Shown here piece by piece: positions 7,074 to 24,552 of a DNA stretch of 64,000 bases. The first letter of the stretch is position 1; each line of letters begins with the position of its first letter. The notes under the pieces were generated by a model. That model made no database searches and was not told the DNA's origin. It worked only from the letters and a program-made list of their open reading frames with translations. This DNA is from an uncultured Pseudomonadota bacterium (GTDB lineage Bacteria > Oederibacteriota > Muellerivitia > Muellerivitales > Muellerivitaceae). The translations under genes were made by a program, and so were the position numbers. The stretch spans positions 928,001 through 992,000 of the forward strand of contig CAWIIP010000002.1 of assembly GCA_963836235.1 (NCBI GenBank), given 5' to 3'.

Positions 7074-8387
7074 TCAATTCTTCGACAGTATCTCCTGGGC
7101 CGCTCCAATTCCCTGTTCCATAGCGGATTCCATACTTCCATATTCCCAACGGCCATAACGACCGACCGAGAGGACCCGATTTTTCCGGTAAAAGGAAAGA
7201 AGGTCCGATACGGTTTGATCCCGGTAATCGTCGTAGATGACGTAAGCGCCCGGCAAATCCAAATCCACTCTCGTCACGATTTCTTTCCGGTTTTTGATCC
7301 ATCCCAGTTCCATCAATTTTTGAATGGCGTGGTTCCCCAGCTTTCGCGGGTCCGGCCTGGCCCCTCGGTAGGAGAATTCCACGTAAATCGAGGCATGCCC
7401 TTTGGGCGCCACGGTCGGGACGCAGGCGCTAACCGAACCCGCCCGGTGAAACCCGAATTCCTTTTCCGGGAAGTAAACCCAGCTATAAGGAACCGGCTGC
7501 TTGCCCCGAATACCCAAATTGATGTTGTAGATCGAAGTAGCCTGGAGGCGCTTGGCGGAACGGGATAAGGCAGGTGGAAGGCCGGAAGTCATCGCCGCCA
7601 GCCGGTTAAGGGGAAGGCTGGAAACCAAGGTTTTGTATTCCACTTCAAGCCCGCTGGTCAGGGTAGCTGTCCATTTGGACAAGTCCAGTTTTTGGATTCC
7701 CGCGCCCGTCCAAAGTTGGGGGAGGTTCCGGGCAATAGCCCTGGGCAGAATGGAAATGCCGCCTTTGTCCGGGTAAAGGAAAGTGGCGTTGTATCCCGAT
7801 TGGGATGCCTGCCGGTCAAAAGCGCCTTGAAGGACTTCCATAATACGGGCCGAGGGAACGAACCGTCCCATCCAATGGGTGGTCAGTTTTTGAAGCGGAA
7901 CTTTCCAAAGCTTCCCGTTGTAAGGAAACATGAAATGCTTGGACAAGCCCGGCCCGAAGGCTTGGAGGCACCAGCTTTTGAAATCCCGGGCTTCCCCTGG
8001 CCGAACTCCGGAAAACCTCTGGTGCAAGACGGCTTCCAAATATCCCAATACATTTTCCCGAATGGTGCCCGAAGAAAGACCGGCGTTGTTTTCCTGGTAG
8101 GGATATTCGCTGTAAGTCCCCTGGCTGTAAATGACCGCATGGCGGGTCCGGGTCTTCAATTCTTTTCCAACGAGATTGAGCACCCATTTTTTTATCTCAG
8201 GCTCATGAAAATGAAGAAAATGGCCGGTGTAATCGAAGGTAAAACCCTTGTCCAAAATCGTCCGGCAAAGCCCGCCCGGATTTTCTTCCTTCTCCACCAA
8301 TAAATAGGGGCTAGAAGCTTGGTTGAGTTCACGAGCGCAAGAAAGGCCGGCCAGTCCCCCACCGGCGATCAGGGTTTGGACTTTCAC
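7074..8387 (-). CDS. FAD-dependent oxidoreductase (protoporphyrinogen oxidase/amine oxidase-like, polysaccharide-locus type)
   Basis: GGGLAG Rossmann motif, PGGLCRT, FDYTGHFLH, GRYGRWEY. Confidence 0.85.
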   Translation of the reverse strand: MKVQTLIAGGGLAGLSCARELNQASSPYLLVEKEENPGGLCRTILDKGFTFDYTGHFLHFHEPEIKKWVLNLVGKELKTRTRHAVIYSQGTYSEYPYQENNAGLSSGTIRENVLGYLEAVLHQRFSGVRPGEARDFKSWCLQAFGPGLSKHFMFPYNGKLWKVPLQKLTTHWMGRFVPSARIMEVLQGAFDRQASQSGYNATFLYPDKGGISILPRAIARNLPQLWTGAGIQKLDLSKWTATLTSGLEVEYKTLVSSLPLNRLAAMTSGLPPALSRSAKRLQATSIYNINLGIRGKQPVPYSWVYFPEKEFGFHRAGSVSACVPTVAPKGHASIYVEFSYRGARPDPRKLGNHAIQKLMELGWIKNRKEIVTRVDLDLPGAYVIYDDYRDQTVSDLLSFYRKNRVLSVGRYGRWEYGSMESAMEQGIGAAQEILSKN

Positions 8388-9475
8388 TTTCTTTTCGCTT
8401 TTCGTGTTTGTTTTTTAGGAGGGCCCAGGAATATCTGGAAAGGATTTTCCCTCAACTTGGTTTGTCCCTCATCGACCCGAATGGTGGAAACCGCCACGGT
8501 AAAAAGAAGGGCGGCGAAGAAAAACAAGACCATGAAAAACAAGGCACGCTTTTCCGAAAGCCGCACCAGCACACCGGCGCAGGCCACGAGCAGGAATGAA
8601 AGGCTCCAAAGCGACCAAACGATAGGCTTCACCGACATGCCCAGGGCCCTCAGCCTCAAGGCCAGGTGGTCGTTGGACCCCCGGAACATGGAACGCCCTT
8701 TCAGGAATCTCAAAAACATCACCAGCGCCGTGTCGTAAAGGGGAATCCCCAAAATGAAAAGCGGTGCGCAAAGGGCGACAACGTTCACTTGGGTATAACC
8801 GTGGCCCATAGCAATGCCCGCCAGGATGAAGCCCAGGAAGAGCGCCCCCGAATCCCCCATATAGATTCGGGCCGGTTGGTAGTTGTAGGGCAGAAACCCC
8901 AGGACACTACCACCCAAGGCCGCCGCCGTCATTGGGACATAGCTTTGGGAGCCCAGGAAGGGGACAAAGACGAACCCCAGGCAGGCGATCACCGCCACCC
9001 CGCCCGCCAGTCCGTCCATGATGTCGATCAAGTTGACCGCATTCGTCACCGCCACCACCCAAAAGACCGTCAGAACCTTGGCCAGCCAGGGGTGACTCGG
9101 AAGAAACTCCAATTGGACTCCGAAAAAGATGAGCAGTGAAGCGGCCAGAATTTGGAATAGGAACTTGAGCGCCGGAGAGAGCGAAAAGAGATCGTCCGTC
9201 AGCCCCAAAATGGCGACCACCGTGCCCCCGGCCAAAAGGGCCAAAACCCGAGGTGAATCGGAAGGCGGAGACAGGATGATGGCCGAGAGAACCCCCAAAA
9301 GAAAGGAAAAGTAGATGGCCAGCCCCCCCATATAAGGAACCGGGGCGGTGTGCTTTTTCAGTTGGCCTTGGGGGCTATCTAAGAAGTGAGACCTTAAGGC
9401 TATTTTCCGGAAGAGGGGGGTCAACCCCAAGGAGAGGACTAAAGTGACGATGAAGATGATCCAGTTGGCGTCCAG
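8384..9475 (-). CDS. MraY/WecA/TagO family undecaprenyl-phosphate alpha-N-acetylglucosaminyl 1-phosphate transferase
   Basis: PYMGG, LTDD, NAVNLIDIMDGL, YMGDSG, DHL motifs; probable CTG start at 9475 behind GGAGG (track start 9430). Confidence 0.9.
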   Translation of the reverse strand: MDANWIIFIVTLVLSLGLTPLFRKIALRSHFLDSPQGQLKKHTAPVPYMGGLAIYFSFLLGVLSAIILSPPSDSPRVLALLAGGTVVAILGLTDDLFSLSPALKFLFQILAASLLIFFGVQLEFLPSHPWLAKVLTVFWVVAVTNAVNLIDIMDGLAGGVAVIACLGFVFVPFLGSQSYVPMTAAALGGSVLGFLPYNYQPARIYMGDSGALFLGFILAGIAMGHGYTQVNVVALCAPLFILGIPLYDTALVMFLRFLKGRSMFRGSNDHLALRLRALGMSVKPIVWSLWSLSFLLVACAGVLVRLSEKRALFFMVLFFFAALLFTVAVSTIRVDEGQTKLRENPFQIFLGPPKKQTRKAKRK

Positions 9476-9580
9476 GGGCGTCCTCCAGGCAGCGGATGGC
9501 TAATGTTTGGCTGTCTTGAGGCACTATAACACAAAGGCAAAGGGTGCCCAATTGGCTTAAAAAACATGGAAAAGGGCAAT

Positions 9581-9610
9581 AAAAAAGCCCCGGTGGGTCG
9601 GACCGAGGCT
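9581..9610 (-). terminator. Rho-independent terminator of the putative sRNA
   Basis: AGCCTCGGT-7nt-ACCGGGGCT stem (one G-U) followed by T-tract on minus strand. Confidence 0.8.
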
Positions 9611-9666
9611 GGGAGGTGAGTGTTGATTTGTTTGAAAGCAAACCAGTTGTCGCTGGCCTACTTGCT
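9581..9666 (-). ncRNA. Putative sigma54-dependent small RNA (~86 nt)
   Basis: Bounded by a -24/-12 promoter and an intrinsic terminator; 5' hairpin plus single-stranded CACUCACCUCCC anti-SD segment; no ORF on this strand. Confidence 0.65.
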
Positions 9667-9676
9667 AACTATATAA

Positions 9677-9692: not shown

Positions 9693-9763
9693 GTCCTTGT
9701 GCGGTTTTTCATGGCCAAAAAGCCTTATAATTTGAGGTTTTTCAAAAAAACCTAAAAAGTTAA

Positions 9764-9811
9764 GTGTAATTTATATTTACACTCAAAATATATTGTACAT
9801 ATTATTTACAC
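9764..9811. promoter_or_regulatory. Tandem enhancer (UAS) sites for a sigma54 activator
   Basis: GTGTAATTTATATTTACAC (9764-9782) and TTGTACATATTATTTACAC (9793-9811), both TGT-N11-ACA, ~100-145 bp upstream of the predicted TSS. Confidence 0.7.
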
Positions 9812-9944
9812 TTTTTCAAGTTTAATTTTAAACCAAATTCTTTATCTATTTGGCATGCATAAAGCAAAAAGTGTATAGCTTATGGATATTTACTTGTCTC
9901 TAGATTGCACGCCTTACTTCGGACCAAAAGGATAGAATTTCCGC

Positions 9945-10781
9945 ATGGATTATATTTCTTCAATCAATTTTATGCTCATTGTTATTGGTTTGGGTCTTTC
10001 TGCGGTTGGGGGTGGTATGACCTTTCTACCGCAAAATCATTTTGATAAAGGATTTGGAAGAACAATAAGAATAGGTATGGGATGGTTACTTATACTTTGG
10101 GGGTTAAGCCTTTCTGGGTATACGACTTATATTTTAATTCAAGGAAAAAGTACAGAACAAGCAACCATGTGGTTTGGGGGGGCCGCTCATCTAGTCCCAA
10201 AGATTGTTCCAACTCCACGCCCAAAAGCCAGAAAAGAAACGGAAATTAAAAAGCAAAACGAAACCCAAGCTTCTTGTGAAGCTGTTTCAATTTGGTTTAA
10301 TGACTCTCAACCTCAACCAGAATTCAACATTTATCCAGATAGCAAGGATGGTGATACATTACAACCGAAATTAGAACTGAAGTTTTATGTTGATTGCTTC
10401 AATAAAACAAATGAAGAAAGAGATTTAACTTTTTTGCCATACCTTCAAGGAGGTAATCTCCCAGCAAATTGGAAAGTGATTGGTGTTGGGATATATCAAA
10501 TAAGCGGGGCGGAAAAAGATATTCCAGGCCCCAAAATTGTCGTGGCTCCGAAAACACACTTCTTATTCAATGCTCTTGTGGAGATTGGTACGGAAGATAT
10601 GAATACGCCCGCATTTTATGAATCTTTCAAAACGTTAAGTGAAAAAGTAACTTTTACTTTAACCGTTAAAACCGAGGAAGACGAAACTTGTACAACAGCT
10701 CAAACCATTTCTATAAGGGACGGGTTTCGAATAAATTTCGAACATAATCATCAAGACATTACGAAAAATTGGAGTAATTAG
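9945..10781 (+). CDS. Hypothetical AT-rich membrane protein (two N-terminal TM helices plus soluble beta-rich domain)
   Basis: 278-aa ORF with hydrophobic N-terminus; markedly lower GC than flanks; no recognisable family motif. Confidence 0.75.
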   Translation: MDYISSINFMLIVIGLGLSAVGGGMTFLPQNHFDKGFGRTIRIGMGWLLILWGLSLSGYTTYILIQGKSTEQATMWFGGAAHLVPKIVPTPRPKARKETEIKKQNETQASCEAVSIWFNDSQPQPEFNIYPDSKDGDTLQPKLELKFYVDCFNKTNEERDLTFLPYLQGGNLPANWKVIGVGIYQISGAEKDIPGPKIVVAPKTHFLFNALVEIGTEDMNTPAFYESFKTLSEKVTFTLTVKTEEDETCTTAQTISIRDGFRINFEHNHQDITKNWSN

Positions 10782-10863
10782 AATATTCATGCGTAAGGTG
10801 ATTATGCCTGCCTAAAGCTTTCGAAGGGCTCTTCGCAATGACTACCAAAGATATCGTTGGCTT

Positions 10864-12741
10864 CTACTCCACCCCAATCCCATACTTCCTTATCTTCTGA
10901 TAAAGCGTCGGGCGGCTGATACCCAACCGAGTAGCGGCTTGCTTTTTGTTGAAGTGGGATTCCTGCAGAACCCGAAAGATCAAATCCTTTTCCCCTGATT
11001 CAAGAACGCTGTTCGCCGGAAGCTTTTCCATCGTCTTAGAAGCGGGGTTCTTTGCGCCAGTCAGCTCCTCCGGGAGGTAGGCGGGCTTGATCAGCACGTC
11101 GTCGTTCAAGGTCACGATACGCTCGATGACGTTCTCCAGTTCCCGCACGTTCCCGGGCCAGCGGTGTTGCCGCATGATCGCCAGGGCTTCCTCGGAAATA
11201 CCCTCGAACCTCGTGGGCCGCTTGGCCTTCAAGCGGTCGAGAAAGTATTTCACCAATAGCGGAAGGTCGCCTTCCCTATCCCTGAGCGGCGGCATCTCGA
11301 TGACGATGACGTTCAGCCGGTAAAACAAGTCTTCCCGGAAATGGCCTTCCTTGATGGCCTGCTTCAAATCCCGATTCGTGGCGGCTATGACGCGGATATC
11401 GATCTTGACCGTCCCCGTCCCGCCCACCCGCTCGAATTCCCTTTCCTGGAGCACCCGCAGGAGCTTGACCTGGGTGGAAAGGGAGATTTCGCCGATCTCG
11501 TCCAAGAAAACGCTCCCCTGGTCGGCGGCCTCGAACTTCCCGATCTTTTGCCCAATGGCCCCGGTGAAGGACCCCTTCTCATGCCCAAAAAGCTCGCTTT
11601 CCAGGAGGGATTCACTAAGAGCCGAGCAAGCGATGGGCACGAAGGGCCTATCATGCCGCGCCGATTGCTGGTGGATGGAGCGGGCCACCAGCTCTTTCCC
11701 CGTGCCGTTTTCCCCCAAAATAAGCACGGTCGCGTCGCTGGCGGCCGCCCGTTTGATGAGGTCCTGAATGCGCTGCATGGGCGGGCTGTTGCCGATGAGG
11801 AGGCTTTCTTCCGCCGGGCGGCTTTTTTGCGCAGCGGCCACCGACACCATGGACTTGGAGAGGGCGAAGAGGATGGAGGCGGCGTTTTTGGAGGATTTCA
11901 CGAACTCCTCATAGTCTTCCTTCATGCGCCCGGTCAGCCCTTCGTTAAAATAAACTTGTCCCAGGTTATAGATGGCGTTCACATGGTCGGGATTTACCTT
12001 CAGCACATCTTTGAATTCGGTAATGGCTTTTTCCAGTTCCCCCTTTTTAAAATAACAAATCCCGAGGTCATTCTGGATGTTCAGCCTTTCCTCCCCCGCG
12101 GGTAATATCTTGAGGGCCTTGCGGTAAATCTTGATGGCTTCGTCGTACCGCTCCAAGGCCATCAGGCATTCCCCCAGGCTTCCCAACGCCGGGACGTTGC
12201 GGGGGTTGGAGTCGATGACCGATTGGTATTGCTCCAGGGCCTTTTCCAACTCGCCCCTTTCCTTGAACAGCGCCCCCATGTTCATTCGGCATTGGAAGGA
12301 CAGGCTTTCGGCCGTGTGGAAAAGCCCCAGGTAAAAACTGCCGGGCGTCAGGGGATGGACCAGGTGAAGGGTCTCCATGAAGGAAAACATGGCGTCATTG
12401 ACATGCCCCCTTTTCATGTGGATCAGCCCCATGTTGAAATGGACGTCCAGGAGCGAGGGATGGATTTTCAGGGCCTTTTCGTAATAGTCCAGGGCGGCGA
12501 CAAAATCCTGCAAATGAAAAGCCGCGTGGCCCGCGTCCCGAAGGGCGAAGGCGCTGAAGGGGTTTTTCTTGACCACCGATTTGAACAGCTTGAGGGCCTT
12601 TTCGTACTCGCCCTCCTCGAAGGCGGCCACCCCTTCTTCCGTGGCCTTCTCAATGGGCTCATGGGCGGCCCCACAAACCGGGCAAAAGCGGTGTTCTTCG
12701 TCCAGGGGATTCCCGCATTCGCGGCAGATGATGTCGGCCAT
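10864..12741 (-). CDS. Sigma54-dependent enhancer-binding protein with N-terminal zinc ribbon and TPR repeats
   Basis: CxxC-x10-CxxC, TPRs, GENGTGKE Walker [32 protein letters not shown]-terminal Fis HTH ([11 protein letters not shown]). Confidence 0.95.
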
Positions 12742-12744
12742 GCC

Positions 12745-13161
12745 TTAGCTCCCCCGTTTCTTCGTCTTGGGTGACGATTTTTGGGGAGTGCCTGGCTTTT
12801 TAACCGGCTTTCCGGCGGGCGCCGTAAGCTTTTCGATCTGGAGGGTGATCAAATGGTTCGCCTGCGGATGCTCGGCGTAACGCTTTTTCAGCTTGAGGTA
12901 CCAAGCCAGGGCTTCTTTGAGCTTCCCGGCCTTTTCCAGCTTATAGCCCTTGCGGAATTCCTTCTCGAACTCGATGAAACGCAGTTGGTCCGCCTCGGAT
13001 AAATGGGTGGTCCAGAGGAACCCCGAAGCGGTCAGAGCCGCCAGGGTCATCAAATAGATGAAGTAGGGAGGGAAAGCCAGGACGCCCAGGAGGTTGACAA
13101 TCGTCAGGCCGCCCCAGTCGACGTTTTTCAGCATGGTCTTTTGCAAGCGCGCTACCCCCAC
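12745..13161 (-). CDS. Hypothetical small membrane protein with TPR-like helical tail, co-transcribed with the activator
   Basis: Two hydrophobic segments then helical EKAGKLKEALAWY; ends 3 bp before activator start; start codon uncertain. Confidence 0.75.
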   Translation of the reverse strand: MGVARLQKTMLKNVDWGGLTIVNLLGVLAFPPYFIYLMTLAALTASGFLWTTHLSEADQLRFIEFEKEFRKGYKLEKAGKLKEALAWYLKLKKRYAEHPQANHLITLQIEKLTAPAGKPVKKPGTPQKSSPKTKKRGS

Positions 13162-13186
13162 AGACGGTCATGGTATGGTTCCAAAA

Positions 13187-13205
13187 GTGTAATTTTATTT
13201 TACAC
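13187..13205. promoter_or_regulatory. Third copy of the GTGTAA-N7-TTACAC site (probable autoregulatory operator)
   Basis: GTGTAATTTTATTTTACAC immediately upstream of the 13161/12741 operon. Confidence 0.7.
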
Positions 13206-13215
13206 CCAAGGGCAT

Positions 13216-13249
13216 AAAAAAAGCCCTGGTTCTTTCGAACCAGGGCTTT
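13216..13249 (-). terminator. pnp terminator
   Basis: AAAGCCCTGGTTC-GAAA-GAACCAGGGCTTT stem with T-tract on minus strand. Confidence 0.9.
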
Positions 13250-13262
13250 GGGACGCTAAAAG

Positions 13263-15374
13263 TTAAAGTTTTTTGTAATCGGCGATGTTCAAACCAAGGG
13301 CTTCCTTGCGGGAAAGCTTGATCTTCTTGGTCTTCGGGTCGATCCCGATGCACTTGACCAAGAGTTCGTCGCCTTCCTTCAGGACGTCCTCGACCCGCTC
13401 CACGCGGCCCTTGTCCAATTGGGAAATATGAACCAGGCCGTCGGTGCCCGGCAGGATCTCGACGAAAGCGCCGAAGTCCATGATCTTCTTAACCGTGCCG
13501 AAATAAATTTTTCCCTCTTCGGCCTCGGCCATCAGCCCGTCGATAAAGGCCTTGGCCTTTTCAATAGAGGCTCCGTTGGGAGAGGCGATATTCACCGTAC
13601 CATCGTCTTCCACATTGATTTCAACTTGGAAATCTTCCGTGATTTTTTTGATCATCGCGCCGCCTTTGCCGATGATGTCCCGAATCTTATCCACCGGAAT
13701 CTTGATGCTGACGATCCGTGGGGCATAGGGCGAAAGGGTCGTGCTGGGGGAGGTCATGGTCTTATCCATGATGTCCAAGATGGTCAAACGGCCCTGCTTG
13801 GCCTGCGCCAAGCCCTTCTCGATGACCTCGAAAGGCAGGCCTGTGATCTTGATGTCCATCTGGATGGCAGTGATGCCCTTGCGGGTACCGGCCACCTTGA
13901 AGTCCATGTCGCCAAAATGGTCTTCCAACCCTTGGATGTCGGTCAGGATGGCGTATTTGGTCATGTCCGCGTTGGAAACCAACCCTAAGGCCACGCCCGC
14001 GCAGGGGCTCTTCAAGGGCACGCCCGCGTCCATCATGGACAGCGAACCGCCGCAGACCGAAGCCATAGAGGAGGAACCATTGGATTCCAGAATGTCGGAG
14101 GAGACCAGGATGGTATAGGGGAAAGCGTCCAGCGACGGGAGCAATGGCTCCAGCGCCCTTTCCGCCAGGTTGCCATGGCCGATCTCGCGGCGGCCGGGGC
14201 CCGAGAGGCGCTTGATCTCACCCACCGAGTAGGGCGGGAAATTGTAATGAAGCATGAAACGCTTTTTCTGCTCGCCTTCCAGCTCTTCCAAAATCTGCTG
14301 GTCTTCTTTGGTGCCGAGGGTGGTGACCACCAGGGCCTGGGTTTGGCCGCGGGTAAAGAGGGCCGAACCATGCGTGCGGGGCAGAACCTTCACTTCGCCC
14401 GTGATGGGGCGGAACTCGTCCAGCTTGCGTCCGTCCTGGCGCTCGTGGCGGTCCAGGATGGCTTCACGGACCAGGTCGGACTCGATGCCGTGGATCAGTC
14501 CCGAAATATCCTTGTCCTTCTCGGGGAATTTTTCTTTCAAGGCTTCGACTGTTTCTTTTCCAACGTGATGGATGCCTTCTTGGCGCTTGAGCTTGTCTTT
14601 TTCGGCCATAGCAGCCTTCATCTTAGGCAAGGCGAAGGCCTTAACGGCGGCAGCCAAATCCTCCGGCGGCCTGACCAGGGTCAAGGCACGCTTGGGTTTG
14701 CCGGCTTTCTTGACCAGTTCTTCCTGCAGGTCGATGATCTTTTGGCATTCTTTATGGGCCAGTTTGATGGCTTCGTACAGGACCGATTCGGATTCCTCGT
14801 CGGCTCCGCCCTCGACCATCACGACCGCCTTGCGACTGGCGGCGACAACGAGGTCCAGGGTGCTTTCTTCCATTTGCTTGAAGGTCGGGTTGACGACCAG
14901 GTCGCCCTTGATGCGGCCCACGCGGACGCAGCCGAACATGTCGGCCACCGGGATATCGGAAACGGCCAAGGCCGCTGAAGCCGCGGAAACGGCCAGCACG
15001 TCCGAGTCGTTTTCTTGGTCGGACGAGATGACGGTGCAATGCATTTGGACTTCGTTGAAGAACCCATCCGGGAATAAGGGACGGATAGGCCTGTCGATCA
15101 GGCGGGAGGTGAGGATTTCCTTGGTGCGGGGACGGCCCTCGCGCTTGAACCAGCCTCCGGGAATGCGGCCCGCGGAAGAGGACTTCTCGCGGTACTCGAC
15201 GGTGAGGGGGAAAAAGTCTTTGCCCGGCATGGGATCCTTGGCGCCGACCACGGCCACCAGGACCACAGTTTCGCCATATTGGGCCAGGATCGACCCATCG
15301 GCCTGCTTGGCCATACGGCCCGTTTCGAAAGATAAAGTCGCTTGAGACAATTTACAGCTGACGCGTTCCATCAT
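13263..15374 (-). CDS. pnp: Polyribonucleotide nucleotidyltransferase
   Basis: FFPLTVEY, LTSRLIDRPIRP, RREIGHG, ESNGSSS, GDMDFKVAG, KH and S1 domains. Confidence 0.99.
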   Translation of the reverse strand: MMERVSCKLSQATLSFETGRMAKQADGSILAQYGETVVLVAVVGAKDPMPGKDFFPLTVEYREKSSSAGRIPGGWFKREGRPRTKEILTSRLIDRPIRPLFPDGFFNEVQMHCTVISSDQENDSDVLAVSAASAALAVSDIPVADMFGCVRVGRIKGDLVVNPTFKQMEESTLDLVVAASRKAVVMVEGGADEESESVLYEAIKLAHKECQKIIDLQEELVKKAGKPKRALTLVRPPEDLAAAVKAFALPKMKAAMAEKDKLKRQEGIHHVGKETVEALKEKFPEKDKDISGLIHGIESDLVREAILDRHERQDGRKLDEFRPITGEVKVLPRTHGSALFTRGQTQALVVTTLGTKEDQQILEELEGEQKKRFMLHYNFPPYSVGEIKRLSGPGRREIGHGNLAERALEPLLPSLDAFPYTILVSSDILESNGSSSMASVCGGSLSMMDAGVPLKSPCAGVALGLVSNADMTKYAILTDIQGLEDHFGDMDFKVAGTRKGITAIQMDIKITGLPFEVIEKGLAQAKQGRLTILDIMDKTMTSPSTTLSPYAPRIVSIKIPVDKIRDIIGKGGAMIKKITEDFQVEINVEDDGTVNIASPNGASIEKAKAFIDGLMAEAEEGKIYFGTVKKIMDFGAFVEILPGTDGLVHISQLDKGRVERVEDVLKEGDELLVKCIGIDPKTKKIKLSRKEALGLNIADYKKL

Positions 15375-16460: not shown

Positions 16461-19400
16461 TCAGTGAATGACCACAACCTTGCCCGTTTTCCGAAGAGAC
16501 TGGGGCCCGTTGCCGGCTTGGATGACGTAAATATACAAGCCGCTGGCCACCGAGTTATCCGATTGGTTCTCAAGATTCCAGATGATCTTGTTCAAACCGC
16601 TTTGACCTAAGATATCGGCTTGATAAACCAGCTCACCCGTGACGGTGAACAATTCCAATTGAACTTGTGAAGCTGAAGGTAAAGTAACCTCAAAATCAAT
16701 GGGAGTTCCATTCTTTGAGATGTTTGGAACAGCTTTGGCAAATGAAGCGCTCGATTGACATGCTGGAGTCGAGGTTGAACCTGCACTCAATCCGCTTCCT
16801 TCCTGTACCGCGGCCGCTACCAGCCGGGGTGTCGGGCTGGATGTTGGCGTACGAGTTGGCGTAGAGGTCCTAGTATTGGTGGGCGTTTTCGTGTCCGTAG
16901 CGGTGTGGGTGTTGGTAGGTGTCTTCGTCGCCGTCTTAGTATCGGTCGGCGTAGGAGTATTCGTCGGCGTACGAGTGGGCGTAGAGGTCCTAGTATTGGT
17001 CGGTGTCTTCGTGTCCGTGGCGGTATGGGTACTGGTAGGTGACTTCGTCGCCGTCTTAGTATCGGTCGGCGTAGGAGTATTCGTCGGCGTACGAGTGGGC
17101 GTAAAGGTACTAGTATTGGTCGGCGTATGGGTAGGCCTATGAGTATGGGTGCTGGTTGGCGTAATAGTAGCCGTCTCGGTAGCGGTGCTACTGGCCGTCC
17201 GGGTCGTGGTAAGCGTCGGCGTGGAGGTTGCGGTAGCCGTAGCCGAGTTTGTGGGTGTATTGGTCGCCGTATTGATAGCCGTGCTGGTGGCGCTATTCGT
17301 GACCGTGAAAGTTGGCGTCACGGTGGGCGAATTGGTGGCCGAAGAAGTAGGCGTAAGGGTTGCCGTTTTCGTCGCCGTGAAGGTAATGGTTGGCGTCGGG
17401 GTCAAGGTCGGCGAACCGATCGCGGAGCCGCCGGATGTGCAAGGGGCGAATTGATCCACTTGGTTCGCTCCCTGTTCCGCCACATAGAGGGTTCCGTTGT
17501 TGGTAGCCAAACCTTCCGGATTCATGAAGCCGCTTCCAGCGCCGGAGGTCACCCCTTCCAGGGTTCCCTGTTCGTTGTAGACCGCGACCAAGCTGACGCC
17601 ATCGGACACGTAAACCAAGCCCGTCACGTTATCCACCGTGATAAAGCCTGGGCCCTGGAGGCCTGAGGAAGTGGTGTTCCATTGGCTCAGAAGATTTCCC
17701 TGGTAATCAAACACGGAGACCGTTTCGGCGTCGTAATCCGTCACGTAAACGTTGCCGTTGCCATCCACCGACACGCCCGTGGGAGCTTGGAAGGCCGTGG
17801 GTGTCCCCGCGATTCCAGTGCTGCCCCATTGGTTCAAATAACCGTTGGTTGGGTTGAAAGACTCTATCCGGCCGTTGCCGAAGTCCGCCACATAGAACGT
17901 GGTTCCGGCGTTGTTTGCCCCGATACCCCAAGGTTCGTTGAACTGTCCGTTTCCGAAACCCGTGCCGCCAAATTGCGCGACTGGTGTGCCGTAAAGGGTG
18001 AACTCGTCGATTTGGTTGTCATAGAAGTCCACGACGAAGATGTCGTTCCCGGCGATGGCCAGGCCGTTGGGTTCGCCAAAGGCATAGCTGCCGGTCCCGC
18101 TCCAGGGCGTCAAAGCCGCCCCGGTGGCCGAGTAAACATCGATCTGGTTGTTGGTGTTGTCGGCAATATAGACATTACCGCTGGCGTCCAAAGCCAAGCC
18201 ATAGGGGCTTCCAGCCGCCAAGGTCTGGTTCTGGCCGCAAGCCAATGGGGCGTTGTTAGGCGTGGCGGTAGGCGTGGGGATGCTCGAGCAAGGAGCAATC
18301 AACCGGATATTATCCAGGTAAAAGTTCCCTTTCCCATTGGTGGAATTATTGTTGTAGATGAACCTGATTCCAGTCGTGGAACTTCCCACACCCGTTATAA
18401 GGAATGTCACGCTCTGCTGTCCTGCGACAATACCCACCGTATTTGAAATAGTCGAATAATTTTGGTCCACTATTTCCAGTTGGGAATAGGTCGACCCAGC
18501 CACCAAACTCGGATCCACATAGAGATCCATAACCAACTGGCCCACATTTGTCCAATTCGTGATCGGAATCCCGGACAGGATCATCGCCTGGTCGTTCCAA
18601 CCCGCGGCGGTGTTGATGTTTACATCCAGGGAAGTCAATCCTTGGGTCACGTGCGATTTGGACAGGCTGAAGGTCGCGTTCGATCCGCTCCAAGTCCCAC
18701 CCTGGGTCAAGCTCTCGCAACCGTTGAGCAGCTCGGGGCATGTCGCCACGAACACGGGGATGTTGATAGTCACGTCATTCATCCAAATAGTAACCGGCGC
18801 GGTGGCGTTCAGCACCTGTATACCCAATTGTTCAACATCGGACGGGGTCCCCGGGCTCATGGTGAAGCTGACTTGAGTCCAAGAAGAGGACAAACTGTTC
18901 TGGTAAGATCCGCCGTCCCATGAGTAACCCGACCCGCTTTGGTCGAATACCTGGAGGTTTCCTGAACCCGAGGCCTTGTACCAGAAGCTAATGGTACTTC
19001 CGGCGGGGATGGATACGGCCGATGGGAATTGCAAGCCGATGTCCTCACCGCCAGCACCCACCACGGGAAGAATCACTTCCAATGATCCCGTTCCACCAGT
19101 CAAAGGATAGGGATTGGCCGGGTCCACCTGAACAATCGCCCCGGCAGGTCCATTAAACGCTGTCCAACCCTGGGTACAGCCACCGAAGGTATAAGTGGGT
19201 TGTAAGGAAGCCACGCAAGCCGTCGGTGTGGCCGTAGGCGGCATGGTCGGCGAGCCGATCGGCGAGCCCCCGGAGGTGCAAGGCGCGAATTGATCCACTT
19301 GATTCGCTCCCTGTTCCCCCACGTACCAGGTTCCGTTGTTGGCAGCCAAACCTTCCGGATCCTGGAAGCCGCTTCCGGCGCCGGAGGTTACCCCTTCAAA

Positions 19401-22400
19401 TGTTCCCTGCGTGTTATAGACCGCGACCAGGCTGTTGCCATCGGACACGTAAACCAGGCCCGTGGTGTTATCCACCGCGATGAAGCCGGGTCCTTGAAGG
19501 ACTCCTTGGGCGCTCCATTGCCGAAGGAGATTACCCTGATAGTCAAACACCGACACGGTTTGGGCGTCGTAATCCGTCACGTAAACATTGCCGCTGGCGT
19601 CCACCGCGATACCCGTGGGCGCTTGGAAGGGAGTGGTTCCCGTAATTCCACTGGCTCCCCATTGGCTTAAATAGGTACCCGCGGGGCTGAAAGCCTCCAC
19701 CCGGCCGTTGCCGAAGTCCGCCACATAAACCGTGGTTCCGGCGCTGTTGGCCCCGATTCCCCAAGGTTCGCTGAATTGTCCGTTACCGCTGCCCTGGGTT
19801 CCCCATTGGGCGACGGGCGTACCGTTGAGGGTAAACTCGTCGATCTCGTCGTCATAATAATCCACCACGAAAAGGTTGTTCACGGCGACGGCTAGGCCGT
19901 TGGGTTGCCCAAAGGAATAGCTGCCGTTCCCGTACCATTGGCCCATGGAAGCTCCCGTGGCCGAGTAAATATCGATCTGGTTGTTCGTGTTGTCGGCGAT
20001 ATAGACATTGCCGCTGGCGTCTAAGGCCAAGCCATAGGGGCTTCCCGCCGCCAAAGTTTGGGTCTGGTTGCAGGCCAAGGGCGCGAAGGTAGGTGTAATA
20101 GTGGCCGTCGGCAAGATGGGGTTGGAGATGAGCCAGCCCTGCACATCGGCAGTGATCGTGCTCCAGCCATTGCCTGAACCGCCCGTGCCAATTTGGAACC
20201 CGATCTGAACCACTTGGGTCGGGTCAAAACCGCCTGACAAAGTACTGGGGACTGTCATCGTGAAGGTGACGCATCCCGAATCATTCCCCGTGGCCGATCC
20301 AAAGTAGGTGCCGGTTTGCTGATAAACACCGGCGTAGCCTTGAGCTGAACCGTCTTGTAAATAGATCTGGCCGTAATACTGGGGAGCGTTGGAATCGAAC
20401 CCGTTGCTGATATCGGCGACCATCGTGATCACCTTGCCCGCGAAGTTCGTGGGAACGCCGAAACCTTTTTCCACGTTGTAAGTTTGGTTGATCCCGGTGA
20501 AGGGAGGCTGTATTTCCAAGGCGCCGGTGGAGCCGCCATAGCAACTATCGGCGGGCGCGGGATTAAAGGCGACCGACCCGCTGATGATTCCTCCCGAATA
20601 TTGGTTGACGCTCCAGCTGCTGACATCCGCGGTGGAATTAAAGGTATAAGAGGAAAGTGGAACCGGGGTGCCGGTGGGGGTGGGGGTGTTTAAAACTTTC
20701 GGCGTGGCGTTGGAGAAAAGCCAGCCCTGAACATCGGCCGTGATCGTGCTCCAACCTGTGCCACCACCGCCCGTGCCGATTTGGAACCCGATCTGAACCA
20801 CTTGGGTCGGGTCAAAGGAACCGCTGATGCCGCTGGGGACCGTAAATGTGAAGGTGACGCATCCCGAATTGTTCCCGGAGGCGGACCCAAAGCTGGGTTG
20901 GGTGGAATAGGCGCCTGCGTAACCCTGGGCGGCACCGTCCTGTACGTAGATTTGGCCCCAATACTGGGCCGCGTTGGAGTTAAAGTTGTTGCTGATGTCG
21001 GCGATCATCGTGATGGACTTGCCCGCGAAATTCGTGGGACCCGCCAAACCCTTTTCCACATTGTAATTTTGGTTGGCCCCGGTGAAGGGAGGCATCACTT
21101 CCAATGCTCCGGTAGAACCGCCGTAACAACTGTCGGTTGGCGAAGCGTTATAGGCGACCGACCCGCTGATGAGCCCTCCCGAATATTGGTTGATGCTCCA
21201 ACTGCTGGCATCCGCGCTGGAATTGAAGGTATATCCGCCGTTCAGAGACAGGCGGGTGCTGGTGGGCGTGGGTGTGGAGGTGGGGCCCCCGCTGTTTTCG
21301 GTCAGGCACATCTGGCCGACCCAGAAGGTCATCGGTGAGGAATTGGCCGCGTCGGTCTGGAACTTGATGCCGTTGCAATTCGCCAAAGCCTGTGCCTCGG
21401 TGGGAATGGCATCAGGAGATCCCGTGGGCCAACTGCTGTACTGCCGGACAAAAGAAGAGTAAGGAATCGTCACCAATTGCCATGTGTTAGGCGTCGACAC
21501 TTGGATGGCGTAACTATAATCGGCGTAATCCCCGGTGGTAGCGTTGTCAATGATGGGATTGGCGAATTCAACTAAAACCGTGGTTTGGACGCTTGCCATA
21601 AAATAGAACTGAAGGTTGTTCAAGCCGCTGAAGTTCTGGACGCTGCCGAAAGTGGCCTCTTCCCCAAAGCCGCCCGACGAAGGGTTCGTTCCCGACAATT
21701 GCAAAGCGTAGGCGGGTCCATTCGCGACCGGGCTCACCACTCCCGTTGAAGCGGTGTTTGCGCCGCCGCCATAGTTGTAAGAATAGAAGGACGTTCCTAA
21801 ACTATCCGTCACAACTCCGTTCCCGAAATTAGAGGAATACACGCAGGAACCCGCCGGAATCGGTGTGGGAGTGATGAAGACGGTAGGCGTAAAGGTGGGC
21901 ACGGAGCCAGGGATAAGCCAATTCTTGACTGCGACTCCCCAAGCCGACGGGGCGAAATTCCAATTGGCCAAAAGGTCCGGCGGCGTATCGGTGTTCATGG
22001 ACCAAGCGGTGGCTCCTACCACACCCGTGGTGGTGACGGCCCAGCCCGAGGGACCGATCATGTTGTTGTCAAAGGTGCCGTTGTCGCTGTCGTTGCTGGC
22101 ATCTGGACCCATTTCACCAATGAAAACAGGAACGGTGGTAAGGACCGAAGACGGAACGCTGGCGTTCCAGCTGGAGGCTGCGATGCCGTCGTTGCTGCCG
22201 TAAAGATGCGCTGAATAAACCACGCCGTTGCCGGGGTTGGCCACGGGATAGTTCACGACGCCAGTCAAGTCCGAGCACCAGGCCAAGCCGCCCATCAAGC
22301 AAACATTGTTTGCGCCCGTTCCACGGACCGCGTTTAAGAGGGCCTGCATGCCTGGTGTCGTAAAGGAACCATTATTCGAGCCGCCATTGAACCAAGTATT

Positions 22401-24233
22401 CCAAGCATTGGTGTCATCCGTGCCGCTGGGGCTGGTGCTGTAAGGCTCGTTGTAAAGGTCGAAGAGAACTGCCGGATTGTTGGCGTAGGTGGAAGCCAAT
22501 GAGCTCCAGAAGGTGATGGCGTTGGCGTCCGCCATGAACTGTTGCTTGGTGTTGAGGTCGTTACCCCATCCGGTTCCGCAAGGCGCGGTGGCGGTCGAGG
22601 AAGTCCCGGACCAATGCAGGTCCAGGATCACGTAGACCCCGTGGTTGAAGGCGTAATCAACGATTTGATGGACCTTGCTCTGGTAAGCCGCGGAACCCGC
22701 GCCCGAACAGCCGAACCATTCATCCTGGTTCAGGGGGAAGCGCATGATAGTGGCGCCCCAGGCCGTGACCGCTTCCTGCTCGGTTTTCAAGATCGAGCCG
22801 CCAATCCCGCTCGGCGGGCCCTCGCCGATGTAAGCCGAACCGTCATACCATTCTAAGCTGTCGATGTCGACGCCCTTTAGGACGGCGGGAGAGCCGTTCG
22901 CCAAAAGGGAATTTCCGGAGACCGAAAGGGATGGCGGACCGCTGGTGGGAGTGCGCGTAATGGTGGGCGTGATGGTCGCCGACTGCCTTTTTGATAAATA
23001 GGCGGATTGGTAAACCCAACCCTGCACATCAACCGTGACCGTATTCCACGCCGTTCCGGAACCGCCCGTGCCGATTTGGAATCCGATTTGAACCACTTGG
23101 GTCGGGTCAAAGGATCCGCTCAAAGAACTCGGAACCGTAAAGGTAAAAGTGACGCATCCGGAATCATTGCCCGACGCGGAGCCAAAGCTGGTACCCGTAT
23201 TTTGATATACCGAAGCGTAACCTTGGGCAGGTCCATTTTGTAAATAAATCTGACCATAATATTGGCCCGCGTTCGAGTTGAATCCGTTGCTGATATCAGC
23301 CACCATCGTGATGGCCATACCGCTAAAGTTGGTCGCCCCAGCCAAGGCATATTCGACATTATAAATTTGGTTGGCGGCCGTAAAGGGAGGTTGGATTTCC
23401 AGGGCTCCGGCAGAGCCGCTGTAACAGCTATCGGCGGGAGAAGAATTAAAACCGACCGATCCGGTGATGAGTCCACCCGAATATTGGTTAATGCTCCATC
23501 CGCTGATATCCGCGCTCGAATTGAAGGTATAACCGGTGGAACCGGGTGAAAGTGGACCAATAGTCGCTGTCGGGGTAACGGTAGGAGTGGGCGTCAAGGT
23601 AGGCGTCGGTGTGTTGGTCGGATAGACCCAGCCTTGAACATCCACCGTGATGGTATTCCACGCCGTACCGCCGCTGCCGGTGCCGATTTGGAATCCTATT
23701 TGAACCACTTGGGTCGGGTCGAAGGATCCACTCAAAGAACTTGGGACCGTAAAGGTAAAAGTAACGCAGCCGGAATCATTTCCCGTGGCGCTCCCGAAGC
23801 TGGTTCCGGTGGACTGATAGACCGAAGCGTAACCTTGAGCGCTCCCATCCTGCAAATATATCTGGCCGTAATACTGGCCCGCGTTCGTGGCAAATCCGTT
23901 GCTAATATCAGCCACCATCGTGATTGACTCGCCCGCAAAATTAGTGGGACTCGCCAACCCATAATCCACGTTATAAATTTGGTTGGCCGCGGTAAAGGGC
24001 GGCTGCACCTCCAAGGCACCCGTGGAACCGCCAAAACAACCATCGGCGGGGGCGGGATTATAGGTTACCGATCCGGTAATCAAGCCACCCGAATAGATGT
24101 TAATCCCCCAATTACTGATATCCGCGCTTGAATTAAAAGTATAGCCGGAAAGACTTTGCGCCCATGTCCATCCCGGGCCTAATGCGATTAGGAGAAAGAG
24201 TAAGCTAGAATATTTTTTGAGATAAGAAGTCAT
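16461..24233 (-). CDS. Giant secreted modular GH5 glycoside hydrolase (4 repeated CBM-like modules, CBM11/CIA30-like domain, 2 NHL propellers, Thr/Pro linker, C-terminal sorting domain)
   Basis: Signal peptide after ATG 24233; GH5 motifs [25 protein letters not shown]; NHL repeats; CTD ending [10 protein letters not shown]...GKVVVIH. Confidence 0.88.
16850..17125 (-). repeat. 120-bp-period tandem repeat encoding the Thr/Pro linker
   Basis: 16861-16980 and 16981-17100 are near-identical. Confidence 0.9.
17410..20080 (-). repeat. Two similar NHL beta-propeller modules (~17410-18250 and ~19260-20080)
   Basis: Both begin [35 protein letters not shown] and end [23 protein letters not shown], with high DNA similarity. 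Confidence 0.9.
20127..24146 (-). repeat. Four ~175-aa repeated modules (~23622-24146, 23010-23534, 20715-21236, 20127-20651)
   Basis: Each spans YTFNS.AD...SGCVTFT...[16 protein letters not shown]...DVQGW. Confidence 0.92.
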
Positions 24234-24552
24234 TAGTTTTCCTTTGGGCAAAAGGTTGCAAAAATAATTCTTGGCGACAATAAAAAAAAATAAAAAAATT
24301 GTCAAAGAGATTTTATTGAATTAATTTTGGCGGGTTTAGAATGGTACTTTTTTTGACAGAATAATCAATAAAACTTTTTGTAAATCTTTCACCCGTTTTA
24401 AAAAACGTTTTTTGGTTTTCCGTTAAAGATATTTGTAGTTTTTTTGTCATTAACAAAAAACATTTTAGGGCGATTCCTTATTTTTACGAAGAACCAACGC
24501 CTTTCTTCGTTAAATCGAAGAGTCTAAAATTTAGACTTGTAAAAACAAAAAA

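Follow-up and report, generated by a model that had tools for sequence, protein, structure and literature searches.

The 64,000-nt stretch of DNA presented above, hereafter the window, belongs to a genome of 3,967,731 bases (3.97 Mb; 99.4% complete) from an uncultured soil bacterium of candidate division FCPU426, a name that its relatives also bear in public records. The locus analysed here lies on the minus strand and comprises a two-gene operon for a small membrane protein and a sigma-54 activator (bacterial enhancer-binding protein, bEBP), followed by the gene of a small RNA (sRNA) with its own sigma-54 promoter; a palindrome is found twice upstream of this promoter and once upstream of the operon. 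A first-pass annotation, made from the letters of the window, had taken these parts for a complete sigma-54 circuit. The comparison with related genomes described below points to a self-contained module as the probable explanation, in which the activator would drive the small RNA, the small RNA would shut off the pilin gene pilA, and the activator would repress its own operon.

Sigma-54 activator and small membrane protein

The activator gene (10864-12741, minus strand) encodes a protein of 625 amino acids (aa) with a zinc ribbon, a tetratricopeptide repeat (TPR) array, an AAA+ domain with a GSFTGA loop and a Fis-type helix-turn-helix (HTH) domain. In the Pfam search, these parts were assigned to Zn_Ribbon_1 (residues 6-25), TPR (residues ~40-290), Sigma54_activat (residues 315-481), AAA_lid_14 and HTH_8 (residues 581-620), with E 1.7e-71 for PF00158 and E 8.5e-13 for PF02954. 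The four cysteines of the zinc ribbon, the Walker A and B motifs and the G-x-FTGA loop were invariant in 33 orthologues. The protein thus carries what defines a bEBP, namely a Sigma54_activat domain with Walker A/B motifs and a GAFTGA-type loop, and a C-terminal Fis-type HTH. The first-pass annotation had remarked that a zinc ribbon and TPR array take the place of the usual sensory domains. This description was borne out, as Zn_Ribbon_1 and TPR were found and none of the REC, GAF and PAS families was among the best 25 of the 56 Pfam families that matched the activator; without a receiver among these best 25, the protein stands apart from activators of the NtrC/LuxO type. Its anatomy, together with the upstream sites, the -24/-12 promoter and the presence of rpoN described below, suggests that it would act as an ATP-dependent activator of sigma-54 from upstream sites.

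In NCBIfam, the activator stayed below the cut-off of every named equivalog. Among the 40 relatives searched, matches that included the N-terminal region were obtained in 29 (two of them cut by contig ends), with identities from 93% down to 39%. A search with residues 1-300 returned ~65 clusters of at least 54% identity with TPR and sigma-54 domains, all of which bear generic automatic names; beyond these, the matches were to plain TPR proteins at no more than 30% identity. Judged at the level of search results, nothing relevant was found in the literature on TPR-containing sigma-54 activators (supplementary files lay outside the scope of that search) or on FCPU426.

The small membrane-protein gene (12745-13161, minus strand) encodes 138 aa from a GTG start codon, or 129 aa from the ATG at 13134, and stops 3 nt before the start codon of the activator gene. 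Residues 17-53 of its product are uncharged and hydrophobic and include an invariant FP-YF motif, and a basic C-terminal part follows (K+R 21 versus D+E 9); the invariant residues are, in all, W, G, FP-YF, FE, G, A, Y and L. No Pfam or NCBIfam family was matched. In each of the 35 genomes for which upstream sequence was available, a homologue lies ahead of the activator gene. This constancy and the 3-nt gap support the earlier proposal that the gene is co-transcribed with that of the activator. In 31 of the 32 relatives in which both gene ends were called, the two genes overlap or are separated by no more than 6 nt; locus L024, with a gap of 130 nt, is the exception.

Sigma-54 promoter and small RNA

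A sigma-54 promoter close to the consensus, TGGCATGGACATTGCC, was located downstream of the activator gene at 9692-9677 (minus strand), with GG at -24 and GC at -12. It has the canonical TGGCAC-N5-TTGC spacing, and the same element was present in every related locus; rpoN is encoded in the genome in a single copy. The RNA start at ~9666 was predicted from the -12 GC, which gives a small RNA gene of ~89 nt at about 9578-9666 (minus strand). The RNA opens with a 5' hairpin, continues unpaired up to the end of CUCACCUCC, which resembles the anti-Shine-Dalgarno sequence of the 16S tail, and closes with a terminator hairpin, the GACCC loop of which is invariant, and a U-run. The intrinsic terminator (9576-9610, minus strand) is formed by a 9-pair stem (9610-9586) followed by TTTTTTATT, which places the RNA end at ~9578; the stem was kept in 30 of the 30 aligned sequences. 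A folding energy of -30 kcal/mol was calculated for the RNA (z -3.25), and 2 of 200 shuffled sequences were equally stable.

A covariance model was built from an alignment of 23 orthologous stretches. In the genome itself it found a single copy (window 9576-9668, E 1e-15), the next matches having E 0.23 and 0.87. Among 99 genomes of the phylum, it matched 29 of the 30 other genomes of the family, the one genome of the sister family and, weakly, one genome elsewhere; the sole family genome without a match is 63% complete, and a full-length activator was likewise not found there. Covariation was scored on 30 sequences aligned to the model, an alignment that is partly fitted to the structure tested and favours it somewhat: of the cells of the 20-pair structure, 86.4% were paired, and changes on both sides occurred at 14 of the 20 pairs, which was reached by none of 500 shuffles. 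Slid controls gave at most 64% paired cells. In a scan of Rfam 15, no match was obtained over the RNA at E<=1, the only matches being two sub-threshold ones at 13214-13324. A look for RNA sequencing runs that contain the locus returned none. With its own promoter, an intrinsic terminator and a conserved structure, the RNA has the features of trans-acting base-pairing RNAs.

Just past the RNA terminator, an extended -10 element, TGTGTTATAGT, was found at 9523-9550 (minus strand); it is conserved in most relatives and probably serves the family-4 glycosyltransferase gene (8384-9430, minus strand) as its sigma-70 promoter.

The position of this gene raises the alternative that the RNA, driven by sigma-54, serves the glycosyltransferase operon as a leader or attenuator and does not act in trans. 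A family-4 glycosyltransferase gene does follow the RNA in the window and, if a motif shared downstream is taken as the guide, in most relatives as well; on the other hand, the RNA is closed by a strong conserved terminator, the downstream gene has a promoter of its own in TGTGTTATAGT, and the conserved unpaired region of the RNA matches pilA and not the downstream gene. On these three grounds the leader interpretation was rejected as very improbable.

Enhancer palindromes

The palindrome GTGTAA-N7-TTACAC, which is of the TGT-N11-ACA type, occurs in perfect form at 9764-9782 (GTGTAATTTATATTTACAC, proximal to the promoter) and in degenerate form, with two half-site mismatches, at 9793-9811 (TTGTACATATTATTTACAC, distal); the start-to-start spacing is 29 bp. 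A third copy, GTGTAATTTTATTTTACAC, lies at 13187-13205 and is considered below as a candidate autoregulatory operator. All three had been reported in the first-pass annotation and were read directly from the sequence at these positions. Its placement of the tandem sites ~100-145 bp upstream of the sRNA also holds, since the minus-strand start at ~9666 puts their centres at ~-107 and ~-136.

Palindromes were searched by a mismatch pattern, beyond which weaker additional sites may exist. With up to two mismatches, five matches were counted in the window against 1.17 expected, a number reached in none of 100 shuffles. The whole genome contains two perfect copies, two with one mismatch and 37 with two. 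A motif common throughout the genome would have spoken against a dedicated enhancer; the perfect form occurs only twice in 3.97 Mb, both times at the 9764-13205 locus, and among the 41 genomic matches only those of the activator/RNA locus have a sigma-54-like promoter within 400 bp.

The comparison of related genomes suggested in the first-pass annotation showed that tandem sites, sigma-54 promoter and RNA are kept in all 30 loci compared across the family and order. Counted one by one in 30 loci of the family and the sister family (locus L011 being taken from the earlier of two scans), at least one palindrome was present upstream of the RNA promoter in all 30 and two, 29-30 bp apart, in 28. 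Relative to the T of TGGCA, the proximal site starts at -89 to -92 in 23 loci, at -81 in two and at -99 to -103 in five, so that the seven off-register sites are shifted by about one helical turn from the common position. For the pair of sites, the usual positions are -90 and -119. In most genomes the enhancer sites begin 30-60 bp past the stop codon of the activator gene. Genome G018 has the RNA on a contig other than that of the activator gene, and both sites and the promoter are retained there.

Between the enhancer sites and the promoter, a conserved A/T-tract element, with TAAGGCTTTTT on the minus strand, is found at 9716-9737. In an ungapped comparison of 13 loci, its consensus was aagg.TTTTT at ~-38 to -25 from TGGCA. 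It may represent a bend or an IHF-type site.

Putative binding of the palindromes by the adjacent TPR activator forms part of the overall explanation. Inverted repeats of the TGT-N-ACA type are used by several regulator families, and many activator-like loci are present per genome (~36 with a sigma-54 activator domain in this ~4-Mb genome and similar numbers in relatives). The palindromes might then belong to a different regulator, either a CRP/Fis-like protein or a further member of the set of ~36 activator paralogues, and the TPR activator might act elsewhere. This is improbable on several counts: sites, promoter and RNA stand beside the activator gene in 29 of 30 loci, the exception being G018; an additional copy of the palindrome precedes the activator's own operon; and no other genomic match lies near a sigma-54-like promoter. 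Moreover, distant orthologues of 39-43% identity have other palindromes at the same place, TCTCA-N4-6-TGAGA and TGTCCG-N5-CGGACA, and altered residues in the recognition helix. As palindrome and recognition helix change together in these orthologues, the motif follows the activator protein.

pilA as predicted target of the RNA

A search of the genome with complements of the conserved unpaired region of the RNA gave one outstanding site, GGGAGGTTTTTATGATTCGTTTGAAAGCAAA (G000:C2:716,9xx, minus strand), which was the only one of its kind. It forms the start of a gene, 220 kb from the RNA gene, for a 151-aa protein that begins with MIRLKAKGFTLIELM and carries the prepilin N-terminal methylation motif, with PF07963 and TIGR02532 above their cut-offs. 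The gene lies between a PilC-type gene (T2SSF) and a pilM-pilN-pilO-(pilP)-secretin series, the secretin having an AMIN domain, and downstream of PilB-/PilT-type ATPases (T2SSE, two genes). From the prepilin motif and the position in the pil cluster, the protein was identified as the major type IV pilin, PilA. Its promoter is of the sigma-70 type (TTGACA-17-TAAAAT).

The stretch of pilA to which the RNA is antisense runs from the Shine-Dalgarno sequence across the start codon to codon ~7; on the RNA side, pairing would involve the unpaired region together with the 3' arm of the 5' hairpin. When all 11,890 regions with a Shine-Dalgarno-like motif and an open reading frame (ORF) of at least 60 codons were ranked, the pilA start region came first, with -34.7 kcal/mol against a mean of -13.7 (sd 4.6). 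The pattern GGAGG-N5-ATGATTCGTTTGAAAG, with up to three mismatches, was found in 26 of 31 family genomes versus 2 of 31 for the reversed control. The RNA of each genome was then compared with the pilA start region of the same genome and with 200 mononucleotide shuffles: in 21 of 23 genomes no shuffle paired as well, the remaining two being G075 (1/200) and G072 (12/200).

Analysis in a fixed register (positions +2 to +20) revealed compensatory changes between the two molecules. At +4, an A:U pair in 18 genomes is replaced by G:C in three; at +12, G:C is found in 11, A:U in nine and a misfit in three; and further switches occur at +9, +10 and +11 in G011 or in G003/G019, so that five positions switch in total. 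Pairing reaches 18 of the 19 positions after the first base of the start codon. The divergent RNAs of G011, G017 and G003/G019 pair with the equally divergent pilA starts of their own genomes (MVRM, MIRLKQK and MVRQ/MVRK, respectively). The RNA thus possesses, as trans-acting RNAs do, an unpaired seed that is complementary to a distant start region and covaries with it at five positions. Most likely, the RNA would block pilin synthesis by covering the start of pilA.

The complementarity might instead be a relic of the origin of the RNA or a by-product of pilin conservation, and the RNA might serve as a general anti-Shine-Dalgarno mimic or act on targets such as ftsA. Any extended Shine-Dalgarno site is indeed a match for the CUCACCUCC seed, -30.7 kcal/mol was obtained for the start region of ftsA (GGGAGGUGAGU), and the pilin N-terminus is conserved at the protein level. 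None of this accounts well for the first rank of pilA among 11,890 regions with pairing over nearly the whole register, for compensatory changes at five positions in several lineages, or for divergent RNAs that still match their own divergent pilA starts; little probability is therefore given to a relic or a mimic.

Two further observations concern the sequences that the RNA could contact. The pentamer GGGTC, the complement of the GACCC terminator loop, was seen in the pilA 5' leader of nine of the 20 genomes, for the most part between -36 and -47 (for example in L104), and could provide a second, loop-mediated contact. The ftsA start region (G000:C2:457913-457936, minus strand) carries GGGAGGTGAGT, an 11-nt match to the seed of the RNA; similar seed matches in several relatives came from a loose pattern search in which controls matched as well and are a weak lead. 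In G007, the candidate for pilA was discarded, being no pilin and pairing at background (27/200 shuffles), and a loose pattern for pilA in this and other genomes was abandoned because the control gave as many matches as the real pattern.

Third palindrome and control of the operon

The control region of the operon is limited on its 5' side by the terminator of the upstream gene (13220-13249, minus strand), which was identified as pnp by Pfam. The third palindrome lies between this terminator and the small membrane-protein gene and overlaps a -10-like TAAAAT. Across the 30 loci, a palindrome upstream of the operon was found in 26 with up to two mismatches, and in 25 in a second pass that allowed three mismatches and demanded an A/T-rich spacer. 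Of these 25 sites, 24 read TAnnnT at positions 4-9 in the direction of the operon, compared with 23/58 and 19/58 (~36%) for the enhancer sites. In most of the 25 loci the operator lies, as judged by eye, within ~10 bp of the terminator of the upstream gene, so that the operon promoter must overlap or follow it. The distance to the start codon is 45-129 bp in the filtered set and up to ~200 bp for one site that was dropped by the spacer filter.

A -10 element inside the operator would imply autorepression, and repression of the operon by its own activator through the third palindrome is, tentatively, the most likely interpretation. It is less likely that the site is not a repressing operator and has instead a positive autoregulatory role, an architectural one (with a loop to the enhancer, at a distance of 2.4-3.5 kb) or a role at another type of promoter. 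Such a role would suit the variable distance to the start codon and the finding of neither a -35 element nor a sigma-54 promoter beside the site. It is harder to reconcile with the TAnnnT hexamer that faces the operon in nearly all sites and seldom occurs in the enhancer sites, and with the position of the operator directly after the upstream terminator; autorepression is also documented for LuxO, in the accessible text of the report (PMC3130561). Of the autoregulatory site claimed in the first-pass annotation, the conserved palindrome before the operon thus stood, in 25-26 of 30 loci, while repression as the sign of its action, rather than activation, is put forward here as the preferred reading.

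Adjacent features and distant relatives

An AT-rich ORF of 278 aa (9945-10781, plus strand; 37% G+C versus ~51% for the genome), with a predicted N-terminal membrane helix, lies between the enhancer and the activator gene. It was dismissed as a conserved part of the module, having no relative at any of the loci or elsewhere in the genome and being missing in a genome of the same genus. Genomes G020 and G018 have different AT-rich inserts at the same spot, and the 27 nt ahead of the ATG of the ORF, which are unique in their own genome, recur almost unchanged in G018, ahead of an unrelated ORF that occupies the corresponding position. A sigma-54-like element, TGGCATGCATAAAGCA, occurs at 9851-9866 (plus strand), 78 nt ahead of this ATG. 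Since this element and the RNA promoter lie at roughly equal distances from the proximal palindrome, the enhancer might act bidirectionally. Near the locus, a very long ORF (2,614 aa; 16461-24305, minus strand) was also noted.

Orthologues with 39-43% identity in other families retain both genes of the operon, and in three of five loci a sigma-54 promoter was found downstream. At these distant loci the RNA is replaced, downstream of the activator gene, by a gene for a protein of 62-66 aa (L025:1108-1296, minus strand; L027:6081-6269, plus strand), which matched no Pfam family and has the conserved sequence C..MGH.GAGR...VR.

Proposed circuit

The two-gene operon would provide the small membrane protein and the activator with its zinc-ribbon/TPR sensor region. 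In its active state, the activator would bind the two TGT-N11-ACA palindromes ~107 and ~136 bp upstream and drive transcription from the sigma-54 promoter of the ~89-nt RNA encoded just downstream of its own gene. Once paired with pilA mRNA from its Shine-Dalgarno sequence to codon ~7, start codon included, the RNA would switch off pilin synthesis post-transcriptionally. On the third palindrome, over the -10-like hexamer, the activator would repress its own operon. Of this circuit, sequence and comparison show the parts with their conservation and spacing, the structure of the RNA and its complementarity to pilA with compensatory changes; the binder of the palindromes, the sign of autoregulation, the repression of pilA and the role of the membrane protein are inferred. 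The most hypothetical element is the sensing route suggested in the first-pass annotation, in which the membrane protein would signal through contact with the TPR domain.

Several observations weigh against this circuit. Because ~36 activator-like loci are present in the genome, another activator could use the palindromes. A -35 element could not be located for the operon promoter, which makes the reading of TAAAAT as a -10 element tentative. A profile search of the genome for Hfq (PF17209) gave no match. As the N-terminus of pilins is very conserved, part of the nucleotide conservation of pilA reflects the protein, and any strong Shine-Dalgarno site will pair to some extent with an RNA whose CUCACCUCC resembles the 16S anti-Shine-Dalgarno tail. 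In the own genome, G001, G016 and G075, an A.C mismatch stands opposite pilA +7, where the RNA has A and most others have G; a change at +12 in G006 is uncompensated; the pairing in G072 is weak, 12 of 200 shuffles being as good; and a pilA orthologue with matching sequence was not found in G007, which is 85% complete. With these points included, the circuit remains the probable explanation.

Comparison with known systems

Receiver-less activators of sigma-54 have a precedent in PspF, which is controlled by protein contact linked to membrane proteins (PspA/PspBC) and is without any N-terminal sensor domain. The activator described here differs in that its AAA+ domain is fused to a zinc ribbon and a TPR array, and any control of it by contact is hypothetical. 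The order of an activator gene followed by an sRNA gene with a sigma-54 promoter is seen in cbrB-crcZ of Pseudomonas, the product of which, CrcZ, acts as a protein sponge. The same order was described for nla19-pxr of Myxococcus, in which the sRNA gene lies directly downstream of the sigma-54 activator gene and has its own sigma-54 promoter (PMC5568312, accessible text). The present locus shares this arrangement with nla19-pxr, but Nla19 and CbrB are response regulators with receiver domains and the present activator has none. Pxr controls development, whereas the present RNA is predicted to act against pilA, and neither Pxr nor CrcZ shows a sequence relation to it (no match in Rfam).

LuxO is phosphorylated through a phosphorelay and acts on several Hfq-dependent Qrr paralogues. 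As described in the accessible part of a report on Vibrio, LuxO is a dedicated sigma-54 activator that drives regulatory sRNAs and represses its own gene (PMC3130561). A dedicated activator that drives an sRNA and, as proposed here, represses its own operon is common to both systems; unlike LuxO-Qrr, the present module has one RNA copy, a zinc-ribbon/TPR sensor, no Hfq gene that could be found and a predicted target in pilA.

For the target itself, an analogue is Arp of Acinetobacter baumannii, an sRNA that was shown experimentally to cover the Shine-Dalgarno sequence together with the initial 17 codons of pilA (PMC12338739, accessible text). Arp is an unrelated RNA from an unrelated phylum, for which neither a sigma-54 promoter nor a dedicated activator is named in the abstract, and the case of pilA described here is a predicted one. 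In the PilS-PilR system, the amount of pilin is governed by a membrane sensor together with a sigma-54 activator, PilS sensing PilA in the membrane (PMC6058289, accessible text). PilR activates pilA at a sigma-54 promoter, whereas here the pilA promoter is of the sigma-70 type and the sigma-54 arm is proposed to be negative, through the RNA; the module also contains neither histidine kinase nor receiver.

The first-pass annotation had called the whole module previously undescribed. This does not hold for the layout of an activator gene followed by an sRNA gene, which is known from nla19-pxr (PMC5568312, accessible text); for the parts, no description was found in Rfam, NCBIfam or the literature. 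Novel features are a zinc-ribbon/TPR sensor accompanied by an obligate membrane-protein partner, a family of RNAs, an operator that has a tentative -10 element embedded in it, and pilA as predicted target, with intermolecular covariation.

Implications

A complete regulatory path, from sensor pair through enhancer, sigma-54 promoter and sRNA to the target, has been reconstructed purely from sequence for a phylum without a cultured member. The zinc ribbon and TPR array, with a partner membrane protein, would constitute a new type of input for sigma-54 activators and are accompanied by a new sRNA family. The predicted action on pilA would be a second, independent case of pilin control by an RNA over the ribosome-binding site, and the covariation between RNA and mRNA offers a rare case of a target argued from genomes alone.

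A further proposal, which is unlikely as it stands, is that the small membrane protein reports the state of the inner membrane. In its most attractive version, the protein would sense the pool of unassembled pilin, in the manner of PilS of Pseudomonas, and pass the signal on directly, the basic helices or tail that it would have in the cytoplasm touching the TPR array. If this were true, the module would be a phosphorylation-free pilin homeostat that acts through an RNA, a route of sigma-54 signalling not described so far, and the membrane-protein/TPR route may be ancestral in the phylum, in which distant relatives would use it to drive the 62-66-aa protein instead of an RNA.

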